From: an uncultured Verrucomicrobiae bacterium
GTDB lineage: Bacteria; Verrucomicrobiota; Verrucomicrobiia; Limisphaerales; UBA11358
Length of the DNA: 64,000 bases
Assembly: GCA_963827205.1 (NCBI GenBank)
Contig: CAWHAH010000002.1
Span: 57,369 to 121,368 of the forward strand
Direction: 5' to 3'
In this document: one piece after another, positions 19,097 through 20,100 of the stretch
Numbering within the stretch: position 1 is the stretch's first letter
Layout of the letters: every line of letters begins with the position of its first letter
Program-made: the position numbers and the translations under genes
Notes under the pieces: model-generated
Told to the model about the DNA's origin: nothing
The model's database searches: none
The model's input: only the letters and a program-made list of their open reading frames with translations

Positions 19097-19125
19097 TTGC
19101 ATCGGCTGATGCGGCGGACTAATTT
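19097..19125 (+). promoter_or_regulatory. Putative sigma70 promoter of the tRNA-Lys repeat locus
   Basis: TTGCAT-17 nt-TAATTT, 13 nt before the first tRNA-like unit. Confidence 0.55.
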
Positions 19126-19138
19126 CCCGCGCTCCGGC

Positions 19139-19417
19139 GGGTTGGTAGCTCAGCCGGTAGGGCAGCCCCGAAAGTTTTCGGGGTTGGTCCCGGGGTCAGG
19201 GTGTTGACCTCGGGTTGTTGGATAAATTTTGGGGTTGGTAGCTCAGTCGGAAGAGCAGCCGCGAAAGTGTTCGGGGTTGGTCCCGGGGTCAGGGTGCTGA
19301 CCTCGGGTTGTTGGATGAATTTTGGGGTTGGTAGCTCAGTCGGAAGAGCAGCCGCGAAAGTGTTCGGGGTTGGTCCCGGGGTCAGGGTGCTGACCTCGGG
19401 TTGTTGGATAAAATTTG
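19139..19417 (+). repeat. Three tandem 93-bp tRNA-Lys-derived units
   Basis: Units start at 19139, 19232, 19325; the real tRNA starts at 19418 in the same register. Unit = tRNA 5' strand + D arm, 18-bp palindrome in place of the anticodon arm, TTGGTCCCGGG, then a different hairpin. Confidence 0.95.
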
Positions 19418-19493
19418 GGGTTGGTAGCTCAGTCGGTAGAGCAGCGGCCTTTTAAGCCGTTGGTCCCGGGTTCGAGTCCCGGCCAACCCACCA
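19418..19493 (+). tRNA. tRNA-Lys(TTT)
   Basis: Acceptor GGGTTGG/CCAACCC, GCGGC-CTTTTAA-GCCGT, CCGGG-TTCGAGT-CCCGG, ACCA; 76 nt. Confidence 0.97.
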
Positions 19494-19511
19494 ACTTCTT
19501 CAGGTAATCGC

Positions 19512-19763
19512 ATGGCTTGGGCTTACATTCTGCGTGGCGATGCGGGGCGGCATTATATCGGCTCAACTACTGATCTGGAGCGCCGACTCCGTGAACACCG
19601 CCGCGGCCATACGCATTCGACAAGGCGTATCGGTGACAATTTGGAGGTTGTGGCAGCAGTAGAAATGGACTCGCTCGACGAGGCACGTGCCTTGGAGCGC
19701 GAGATGAAACGCAAGAAAAATCCCCGGCTGGCGCTCGCATTGCTGCAAGGCCGGTTGTCGTAG
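19512..19763 (+). CDS. Minimal GIY-YIG nuclease family protein
   Basis: 83 aa; AYIL...HYIGST.DLERRL.EH..G..ST...EARALEREMK matches the GIY-YIG core (Y, Y-I-G, R, H, E). Confidence 0.9.
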   Translation: MAWAYILRGDAGRHYIGSTTDLERRLREHRRGHTHSTRRIGDNLEVVAAVEMDSLDEARALEREMKRKKNPRLALALLQGRLS

Positions 19764-19820
19764 AGCAGCCCCGAAAGTTTTCGGGGTTGGTCCCGGGTTC
19801 GAGTCCCGGCCAACCCACCA
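19757..19820 (+). pseudogene. 5'-truncated tRNA-Lys copy with the anticodon arm replaced by CCCCGAAAGTTTTCGGGG
   Basis: TAGAGCAG + palindrome (19769-19786); 19786-19820 is identical to tRNA 19459-19493, including CCA. Confidence 0.9.
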
Positions 19821-20100
19821 CTCCACCCGATGAAGATTTTTCGACGAGGAGCGACCACGGCAAAGCCGTGGAACCACGAGCTTTTTTGCAGTCGAGGACC
19901 GGGTTCGAGCTGACGATTTCAAGAGCAAGAACCCGCTCCTGTTGAAGCGAACCAGAAACAGCGGTTTAATCCACGTTTTCAGCGTCTAATACCATTGCTT
20001 GCATTGCAGGGGCGGTCTGTGACCGCCGCTACAGTAAATTAAGGAGCAACCGCTGGCAAAATGATGTGGCGATTCCGCCGTCAGCCGCTAACCTGTCGCC

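Follow-up and report, generated by a model that had tools for sequence, protein, structure and literature searches.

What is a gene for a GIY-YIG nuclease of 83 amino acids doing directly behind a tRNA gene, in the midst of further tRNA-derived copies whose anticodon arm has been exchanged for a palindrome? The question arises from a stretch of 64,000 nt of an uncultured Verrucomicrobiae bacterium (UBA11358; GCA_963827205.1, CAWHAH010000002.1:57,369-121,368, forward strand), the whole of which we refer to as the window; the host assembly is a metagenome-assembled genome (MAG) of 4.5 Mb and 91% completeness. A preliminary description of this DNA had offered two ideas, a minimal module that spreads through tRNA genes or a nuclease paired with tRNA-shaped decoys, guides or antitoxins. 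By analogy with known mobile nuclease genes, we consider it probable, if by no means certain, that the locus is a small selfish, homing-endonuclease-like cassette, made up of the GIY-YIG gene and a palindrome-bearing partial tRNA copy, that docks at a tRNA gene and leaves it intact. Near-identical backgrounds differ in whether they have the cassette at a given site; the cassette is also found at different tRNAs, in tandem arrays and in decayed form. The features of the locus, given in window coordinates, are the following.

19097-19138, + strand: leader with a weak promoter-like box ahead of the first upstream unit (TTGCAT at 19097-19102, 17 nt, TAATTT at 19120-19125).
19139-19231, + strand: upstream unit 1, consisting of tRNA-Lys positions 1-27, the palindrome CCCCGAAAGTTTTCGGGG (19166-19183), the variable region, a second long hairpin and an AT-rich tail.
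19232-19324, + strand: upstream unit 2, with the palindrome variant CCGCGAAAGTGTTCGGGG (19259-19276), which carries two uncompensated changes.
19325-19417, + strand: upstream unit 3, with the same palindrome variant as unit 2 (19352-19369).
19418-19493, + strand: intact tRNA-Lys(UUU), called by ARAGORN and scoring 77.4 bits with the Rfam tRNA model.
19494-19511, + strand: spacer of 18 nt between CCA and ATG, as read from the sequence.
19512-19763, + strand: open reading frame (ORF) of 83 aa with a GIY-YIG match in Pfam, whose TAG stop lies within the tRNA-derived TAGAGCAG.
19757-19820, + strand: downstream fragment, the 3' part of the tRNA, with D-arm remnants, the palindrome (19769-19786), then variable region, T arm, 3' acceptor strand and CCA.
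19459-19785, + strand: segment of 327 bp absent from the empty allele (contig of run X6), equal to one repeat unit of tRNA 3' part, spacer, ORF and most of the palindrome.

The three 93-bp units, the intact tRNA-Lys(UUU) and the ORF 18 nt past the CCA were confirmed base for base as they had been reported beforehand, and so was the palindrome that stands where the anticodon arm should be. Each of the four derived copies has it instead of tRNA positions 28-42, between GCAG and TTGGTC, exact at 19166 and 19769 and with two substitutions at 19259 and 19352. These are the four matches to the palindrome pattern in the window, against an expectation of 0.04 from shuffled sequences, and none of 100 shuffles gave four. 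Tandem Repeats Finder (TRF) run over 19139-19445 returned a period of 93 with 3.3 copies and 95% matches. What had been described as another tRNA-Lys copy after the ORF is indeed a copy, but only of the 3' two-thirds of the tRNA; from the variable region to the CCA it is identical to tRNA-Lys(UUU). The intact gene at 19418 is the sole Lys-UUU among the 45 tRNAs that ARAGORN found in the 4.5-Mb assembly. Neither ARAGORN nor Rfam called any of the four derived copies a tRNA, and in Rfam only the tRNA itself exceeded the threshold, with sub-threshold mascRNA-like matches that merely reflect the acceptor and T arm. The upstream units keep the 5' acceptor strand and the D arm and are without a 3' acceptor strand; in unit 1 the second long hairpin takes the place of the T arm, and the RNA fold of this unit shows two hairpins (z -3.65). 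The 18-nt spacer cannot accommodate a separate promoter, and the ORF is presumably transcribed together with the tRNA. As to the promoter-like box noted earlier, a consensus promoter scan of the leader gave no sites, but by eye a similar sequence precedes the upstream unit in two orthologous loci (L010, L061). Downstream of the cassette, at 19866-19895, we also noticed a hairpin, CCACGGC-AAA-GCCGTGG, followed by a gap and a T run; it was missed by a simple scan and is a possible terminator of the tRNA-ORF transcript.

The structure of the locus could be compared with independent sequence data. Datasets from two other studies (X1 and X2) each yielded a DNA contig of 326 nt that matches 19464-19789 with 0 differences. 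The upstream units were covered in other data only by short contigs (61-131 nt), so that their exact tandem number is uncertain. A contig from a third study (X6) joins 19458 to 19786, skipping exactly 327 bases, and the same run gave no cover over 19510-19781. Downstream of the joint it shows 0 differences over 19786-19948, that is 163 nt of window flank, and because 35 letters fit either side, the joint can be placed anywhere within the repeat. In this allele the upstream units are present and the tRNA, with its real anticodon arm, runs straight into the downstream flank of the window. It is either an empty site or the result of an exact loss between the 35-bp repeats.

Among orthologous Lys-UUU loci, the GIY gene is present in the window and in L008 and absent from L010 and L061. 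A DNA search of 60 relatives recovered the ORF portion of the locus in three genomes, plus fragments, and the layout of the window was seen again at the orthologous Lys-UUU (L008), at Lys-CUU (L009) and at Met/Ile2-CAU (L027, L028), the CAU tRNA of L027 being one that we take to resemble tRNA-Ile2. In the wider set of 163 same-genus genomes, the flank-plus-palindrome pattern occurs at 58 sites in 35 genomes, with none for the reversed control. Strong GIY matches (E<=3e-30) were found at 25 sites in 23 of the 163 genomes; seven of the 25 carry an in-frame stop or a truncation, and shorter remnants were seen as well. Forty-five loci were annotated. Twenty comprise tRNA, GIY gene and hairpin fragment, two of them with a broken ORF. 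Hairpin units stand upstream of a tRNA without a GIY gene in 8 loci, a hairpin fragment follows about 50-75 nt downstream of a tRNA without a GIY gene in 6, and one locus has both an upstream unit and a downstream fragment, again without the gene, so that in total 15 of the 45 loci have hairpin unit(s) beside a same-strand tRNA and no GIY. GIY remnants or other arrangements make up 4 loci, and in the last 6 no same-strand tRNA accompanies the hairpin within the sequence retrieved. Loci have between 0 and 4 upstream units, and many GIY loci have none. One locus (L064) is an array of tRNA, GIY, fragment, GIY and fragment, and in three others (L054, L068, L049) the start of a second ORF follows the fragment.

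Besides these loci, isolated halves of tRNA-Lys(UUU) were observed. Several are 5' halves of 38 nt that end in the anticodon loop, with 92-95% identity, and lie kilobases from the intact gene (G003:C9:345774-345811, G015:C45:2738-2775, G033:C12:158917-158954 and G013:C110:3559-3596); further halves of this type are at G011:C7:7079-7116, G029:C183:7920-7958 and G030:C5:29102-29140, and isolated 3' halves are found in G039, G022 and G028.

Starting from the protein and taking one genome per species, a scan yielded 78 loci spanning Verrucomicrobiota, Acidobacteriota, Patescibacteria and others, and a same-strand tRNA adjoins the ORF in 68 of them. In 57 loci, as in the window, the tRNA ends 4-92 nt before the ORF; these are Lys-UUU, Lys-CUU, Met/Ile2-CAU, Val-GAC and Gly-GCC tRNAs. 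In 11 loci, mostly of Patescibacteria, the tRNA begins at or just after the ORF stop (Gln, Thr twice, Phe, Lys, Pro, Ala, His, Asn, Val, Glu). The remaining 10, inspected by eye, comprise 8 with tRNA fragments, 1 with hairpins only and 1 with nothing. Over all surveys the tRNA types were Lys, Met/Ile2, Val, Gly, Asn, Phe, Pro, Ala, His, Glu, Thr, Gln, Trp and Ser. The last 25 nt of the tRNA are repeated downstream, with at most 2 mismatches, in 44 of 55 loci with an upstream tRNA. Five Patescibacteria genomes gave a similar picture, with 12 of 15 GIY homologues abutting a tRNA on the same strand. The idea of a minimal module spread through tRNA genes is thereby upheld: an ORF and a hairpin-substituted fragment occur at several tRNAs and in several phyla, one allele is empty, and there are decayed copies. 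The preliminary description had proposed looking for homologues beside tRNA genes with altered copies and for empty tRNA-Lys sites in relatives; homologues beside a same-strand tRNA are met with in the 68 of 78 loci above, and candidate empty sites in the X6 allele and in the two orthologous loci that lack the GIY gene. Some cassettes sit on contigs labelled Chitinophaga, Bifidobacteriaceae, Alphaproteobacteria or Candidatus Acidoferrum (L130, L131, L087, L097, L075, L079) and nest among Verrucomicrobiota sequences; the odd labels of these six loci likely reflect mis-binning or mislabelling of MAG contigs.

In the 57 loci with the window layout, the spacer between tRNA and ORF is mostly 6-17 nt and lies within 4-24 nt in 55. 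The stop codon is TAG, within the tRNA-derived motif that also ends the window ORF, in 38 of the 57. The palindrome starts about 6 nt past the stop in the 44 loci of window type and about 30 nt ahead of the start in the 5' layout. In the same 44 loci the 5' part of the fragment's homology to the tRNA begins anywhere in positions 2-22 and ends at 26-27, and the 3' part extends from 42-43 to the end of the tRNA. The extra tRNA copies share one trait, namely that one arm is replaced or interrupted by a GC-rich palindrome directly abutting the tRNA homology. Val and Gly tRNA loci carry other palindromes, and in three loci of Acidobacteriota type and Saccharibacteria (L143, L141, L138) different palindromes substitute exactly for the anticodon arm. 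Palindromes also interrupt the D loop (L047, L051) or substitute for the T arm (L047) of pseudo-copies. A mirror layout (L147, L135, L140) consists of a tRNA 5' fragment with one or two CCCCGAC..GTCGGGG-type hairpins in the D arm, the ORF and an intact tRNA, the ORF stop codon lying inside the first bases of the intact tRNA.

We asked whether the copies could still be tRNA-shaped. One locus (L092) does contain a complete pseudo-tRNA with a full cloverleaf in which the palindrome forms the "anticodon arm" with a 4-nt loop, and the window's own fragment can form a 5-bp acceptor-like helix. Over the 44 downstream fragments, however, the best acceptor pairing averaged 4.07, the same as the control with acceptor strands of other tRNAs (4.07, sd 0.12). 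A tRNA punctuation function, in which the fragment would be a tRNA-like signal for RNase P/Z, was accordingly discarded as an account that would hold for all loci. The loss of acceptor pairing also excludes the derived copies as decoy or guide tRNAs, and the earlier proposal of decoys, guides or antitoxins found no support: the upstream units have no 3' acceptor strand, and pairing in the fragments equals that of the control. Decoys for anticodon nucleases were rejected on the further ground that the copies are without an anticodon loop.

The 83-aa protein matches the Pfam family GIY-YIG (PF01541) over residues 2-71 with 48 bits (cut-off 22.6; E 1.6e-12). A profile of 13 relatives compared with the PDB gave BH0048 (1zg2, E 2.7e-11), EF2693 (1ywl, 1.5e-6), Slx1 (4xlg, 2.4e-5) and UvrC (1.6e-3). 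Five residues, Y5, Y15, R24, R25 and E62, are invariant in the 13 aligned sequences, and we take Y5 (GIY), Y15 (YIG), R24/R25 and E62 to belong to the GIY-YIG active site. Judged by these matches, the protein is a minimal UPF0213/Slx1-like domain, a bare catalytic domain with no auxiliary domain. With the group I intron endonuclease model (TIGR01453) it scored 21 bits, below the cut-off of 56. The sections of Dunin-Horkawicz et al. (2006) on which we draw present stand-alone domains of this Slx1-like type in prokaryotes as the fold in its minimal form, and give a C-terminal Asn as typical of the UvrC/homing-endonuclease lineage and lacking in Slx1-like proteins. The relatives have Asn or Ser in a KKNP motif near the C-terminus, which may or may not correspond to the UvrC/homing-endonuclease Asn. 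A homodimer prediction scored 0.01, which has no bearing either way on dimerisation. The intact ORFs evolve under purifying selection, with dN/dS of 0.06-0.24 in those 18 of 21 pairs for which dS is defined (dS 0.3-2.6). A cassette-clade profile run against the whole protein library matched 9,616 clusters (50% identity) at E<=1e-3, 501 at E<=1e-10 and 10 at E<=1e-30. The clades of a 67-protein tree follow tRNA type and palindrome type, with many forks left unresolved because the alignment columns are few; one protein from a Lys-CUU locus (L074) nests in the Lys-UUU clade with support 97/85.

More distant members of the GIY-YIG family were also observed. The host genome (G000) has four distant paralogues, at C22:21228-21827, C14:26922-27458, C24:24521-24772 and C10:1671-2087, of which the first lies about 250 nt behind tRNA-Ala(CGC), the second behind tRNA-Arg(CCG), the third behind a tRNA/tmRNA-like 3' end and the fourth behind an integrase gene. 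A GTCTTCGC..GCGAAGAC-type element, directly repeated, stands on either side of them, and the palindrome studied here is not found there. In other genomes a distant paralogue is repeated two to four times in tandem, the period being about 340-385 bp (G163:C13:25521-26763, G175:C2:1090015-1090549, G159:C41:457018-457605), which suggests ORF-plus-tRNA-like repeats in another GIY-YIG subfamily.

The palindrome deserves attention of its own. Class 1 inserts were collected from L073-L133 as 18-nt inserts between RGCAG and TTGG(T/C/G), the palindrome itself not being selected on. Of the 80 inserts obtained, 69 read exactly CCCCGAA....TTCGGGG, with 24 different 4-nt centres; among the 11 others, 10 were uncompensated and 1 compensated. 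Synonymous sites of the adjoining ORF are near saturation while the palindrome arms are invariant, which speaks for a constraint on the sequence of the arms, beyond their pairing. A class 2 palindrome, CCCCGACA(C/T)..(G/A)TGTCGGGG, is associated with a GIY clade of its own, located at one Met-type tRNA; this may be linkage only because palindrome and ORF are adjacent. Neither class is confined to the cassette. Among the 163 genomes, class 1 was found at 567 sites in 74 genomes (0-41 per genome; 0-1 for the reversed-pattern control) and class 2 at 145 sites in 37 genomes (0-48 per genome; control 0), and only about 46 of the 567 class 1 sites lie in tRNA-like flanks. At least 5 class 1 sites were present in 20 of 23 genomes with a strong GIY match versus 20 of 140 without (Fisher p 7e-12, with kinship ignored). 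One genome (G100) has 41 class 1 sites and no GIY match at E<=1e-5; another (G026) has 48 class 2 sites and only a weak GIY match, and in it the palindrome is the core of a longer repeat. The dispersed copies are mostly intergenic, and some occupy orthologous positions across species (L213/L215, L208/L217, L210/L219, L204/L209). The CCCCGA(A/C) core adjoins GIY genes in Patescibacteria too. In a Saccharibacteria genome of 0.6 Mb similar hairpins are scattered in intergenic DNA (31 versus 2 in the control), and in five Patescibacteria genomes the number of hairpins does not follow the number of GIY genes. A high-copy repetitive extragenic palindrome (REP) in the host's own genome was rejected, as CCCCGA..TCGGGG occurs there at 18 sites and ranks 114 of 448 GC-rich palindromes with 6-mer arms, though it is high-copy in some relatives. 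The claim that the hairpin is cognate to the nuclease therefore fared unevenly: the arms are constrained in sequence (69/80), but the same hairpin is also a dispersed REP-like repeat, present in some GIY-less genomes. The preliminary description had said that a palindrome unrelated to the nuclease and repeated throughout the genome would speak against its idea, and the 567 sites in 74 of 163 genomes are in part just that.

Some further observations concern dispersed palindromes and intergenic repeats. In the host genome, class 2 palindromes CCCCGACAT..ATGTCGGGG lie inside long open frames (C50:44368, C4:5931, C6:132682, C37:20697, C2:284418), and two unrelated frames translate the palindrome as PRH(K/P)MSG, reminiscent of in-frame insertions of palindromic elements. 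Short TTGAGGG/TTCAAAG-like repeats, arranged in runs, border many of the dispersed palindromes and the 3' flanks of some tRNAs (L201, L204, L209, L210, L219, L037, L052, L060). In one Saccharibacteria genome (G187; L188, L191, L196, L199) a conserved element of about 70 nt, GTCCGCATCGGAAGCCGACCGCAGTCGGCTGAGATAGAGTG...ACACGTGTCTT, occurs four times between genes; it is structured-RNA- or repeat-like.

How might such a cassette work? The ORF would ride on the tRNA promoter. By analogy with SegB, a phage GIY-YIG endonuclease discussed below, the nuclease would break DNA in or beside tRNA genes, and the intact tRNA and the tRNA fragment could then serve as homology arms for repair. Such repair would copy the cassette into empty alleles, that is homing, or would duplicate sequence in tandem on the spot, with the three 93-bp units as an example. 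Both layouts could come from one crossover between a tRNA gene and a tRNA copy with a hairpin: if it fell 3' of the palindrome it would give the window layout, and if it fell 5' of it the Patescibacteria layout. The palindrome would mark, and probably disarm or stabilise, the non-functional copy, and would split the repeat into blocks of about 27 and at most 33 bp. It may disarm a cleavage site, shorten repeat tracts, make the mRNA more stable or act as a binding site for the nuclease; because the arms are constrained in sequence, some protein, possibly the GIY-YIG nuclease itself, is suggested to read them.

Several points weigh against a selfish homing cassette. Upstream units occur at tRNAs without any GIY gene. 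The intact tRNA is identical between cassette-bearing and cassette-free alleles (L010, L061), and stretches of the empty allele shorter than about 48 bp are all present in the filled allele; the classical discrimination whereby only the empty allele is cut is for these two reasons unexplained. The X6 allele may be a precise loss between the 35-bp repeats and not a naive site. A protein of 83 aa without a separate DNA-binding domain, unlike SegB or I-TevI, has no obvious means of recognising a long site. The palindrome lies mostly outside tRNA contexts and also in GIY-less genomes, so it need not belong to the cassette. As for vectors, tblastn against 50,697 phage records gave no match, and IMG/VR gave four weak partial matches covering residues 2-31 only. 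In six RNA runs about 0.04 of the sampled words were present, and cover by one of them (X20) reached only 19418-19497, the tRNA part, with loose ends from other organisms, and is uninformative on expression. Finally, most genomes compared are MAGs, and relatives are non-independent samples.

The dispersed palindromes raise a rival in which the roles are reversed. In a system like that of REP sequences and their associated tyrosine transposases (RAYT), built on a GIY-YIG enzyme, the palindromes of 18-21 bp would be the mobile or maintained units, the tRNA-anchored nuclease their cognate enzyme, and surplus tRNA copies would simply collect palindromes, hairpin for hairpin. The hundreds of class 1 and class 2 sites against nearly empty controls fit this, as do the invariant arms around a free 4-nt centre, the palindromes on both sides of the window ORF, the excess of class 1 sites in genomes with a GIY gene (kinship aside), the CCCCGA(A/C) core beside GIY in Patescibacteria and the palindromes that break D loops, T loops or arms of pseudo-copies (L047, L051, L141, L140). 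Yet the two genomes richest in class 1 and class 2 sites have no GIY match or a weak one, the palindrome is in the latter the core of a longer repeat, and in five Patescibacteria genomes hairpin number does not follow GIY number. Copies at orthologous intergenic sites in different species look like stable host features rather than recent insertions, and we know of no GIY-YIG enzyme that performs strand transfer. We regard this rival as unlikely. A bolder form of the idea, a partnership of a new enzymatic type in which the nuclease reads the palindrome arms as a cruciform or dimer site and, by means of breaks made there, overwrites stem-loops of surplus tRNA gene copies, seeds palindromes and amplifies or moves tRNA-gene segments, strikes us as doubtful, with a modest share of the probability.

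A cellular, non-selfish function would have the nuclease, co-expressed with the tRNA, act on tRNA, tRNA-like RNA or tRNA gene arrays, with the hairpin-bearing copies as processing, stabilising or regulatory RNA elements. The lack of room for an ORF promoter at nearly all loci of the window layout is in keeping with it, and a palindrome shortly after the stop or ahead of the start would suit an mRNA-stabilising hairpin. The ORF is under purifying selection, and the sections of Dunin-Horkawicz et al. (2006) used here mention one prokaryotic fusion of an Slx1-like domain to a TrmH-type tRNA methyltransferase, with a suggested role in RNA metabolism. The distribution is patchy (23 of 163 genomes), however, one background is near-identical and empty, broken copies are frequent, and the downstream fragments do not keep acceptor pairing. 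A purely structural RNA role would also predict compensatory stem changes, and 10 of the 11 non-exact inserts are uncompensated; we hold such a function to be improbable. Still less likely, and only slightly credible to us, is a toxin-antitoxin or defence module in which a toxin nuclease is checked or guided by tandem tRNA-derived RNAs, as in type III systems, or in which these are decoys for anticodon nucleases. Tandem repeats do precede the nuclease gene in the window, and Lys tRNAs are targets of known anticodon nucleases. But upstream units are lacking at many GIY loci, the copies have no anticodon loop to cut, and the tRNA types are diverse. Type III modules combine tandem RNA repeats with an endoribonuclease toxin of a known family, and the gene here is a GIY-YIG gene; to our knowledge, GIY-YIG enzymes are DNA nucleases. 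One could also imagine an artefact of assembly, or a local duplication that arose by chance and means nothing further, since the genome is a MAG whose tandem units are covered only by short contigs; the exact contigs from two other studies and the recurrence of the architecture in dozens of independent assemblies from several phyla make this barely conceivable.

The genes next to the cassette are housekeeping genes (MBL-fold, UbiE, Pta, aminotransferase, response regulator), no integrase or transposase is found among them, just as the preliminary description had it, and the 327-bp insert holds the GIY ORF alone.

In the literature we searched, which left out subscription journals and supplements so that an earlier description is possible, we found no account of chromosomal stand-alone GIY-YIG genes docked at bacterial tRNA genes, and, within the same limits, none of tRNA copies with a palindrome-replaced arm. 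The cassette looks like an apparently undescribed family of mobile DNA. If the homing-like reading is true, nuclease cassettes that dock at tRNA genes would be widespread in bacterial chromosomes, including the tiny genomes of Patescibacteria, where they are annotated only as "GIY-YIG nuclease family protein". SegB-type biology, with cutting of tRNA genes, homing and segmental amplification, would extend from phages to cellular chromosomes, the stand-alone Slx1-like/UPF0213 domain would gain a testable function, and the hairpin-bearing pseudo-tRNA fragments beside tRNA genes would be explained. The cassette would also be tied to a family of palindromes that are constrained in sequence. Should a partnership of the REP/RAYT kind prove true instead, it would be the first function for the UPF0213/bacterial Slx1-like family. 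Because the system is small, with an 83-aa protein, an 18-bp site and a 76-bp target, testing at the bench should be easy.

Several known systems resemble the cassette in part. Integrase-driven islands at tRNA genes leave an intact tRNA and a direct repeat of its 3' end, and their precise loss restores the empty site. The cassette shares all three traits, with a tRNA 3'-end repeat flanking the insert; unlike such islands it has no integrase, its insert is about 330 bp, and the repeat carries a palindrome for the anticodon arm. In REP/RAYT systems short palindromes with conserved arms occur in intergenic DNA and flank the RAYT gene, and RAYTs are HUH/Y1 enzymes. Dispersed conserved-arm palindromes, a nuclease gene flanked by them and co-occurrence at the genome level are common to both; the enzyme of the window is instead GIY-YIG, not HUH/Y1, and the link is statistical and broken in G100 and G026. 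Free-standing GIY-YIG ORFs of fungal mitochondria, such as that at atp6 in Allomyces, enter a gene at its 3' end and supply a new end in its stead. There too the insertion is non-disruptive, the host gene is restored and a displaced partial copy lies downstream; unlike the present case, the host codes for a protein and immunity comes through synonymous differences, whereas here the tRNA is unchanged and the displaced copy bears a palindrome. With free-standing homing endonuclease genes in general the cassette shares presence/absence polymorphism at the same site. UPF0213 and stand-alone Slx1-like proteins, with BH0048 (1zg2) and EF2693 (1ywl) as best solved-structure matches, resemble it in consisting of the domain alone, and the UPF0213-type relatives are presumably the YhbQ group; the literature searched reports neither tRNA-gene linkage nor palindromes for the family.

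Nearest in behaviour, among cases studied by experiment, is SegB of phages T4/T6. According to the text sections on it that we consulted, the segB gene is part of the tRNA cluster; SegB recognises a site that includes the T-psi-C motif of tRNAs and homes into phages lacking segB. SegB is there associated with tRNAs of many isotypes in phages, and C-terminal truncation abolishes its toxicity. The hairpin-substituted tRNA copies are a feature of the window and are not mentioned for SegB in these sections. SegB is phage-borne and larger, while the window protein of 83 aa is chromosomal and UPF0213/Slx1-like. Since it has no separate DNA-binding domain, we do not file the cassette in the SegB/I-TevI family, only as behaving alike. 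As described in the same sections, SegB cuts tRNA genes of its own genome, which leads to recombination-dependent tandem amplification of a segment of tRNA and segB that collapses without selection, so self-cutting can evidently be tolerated. What the two systems have in common is a GIY-YIG gene among tRNA genes, the occurrence of tandem arrays, and an intact tRNA that is tolerated beside the gene.

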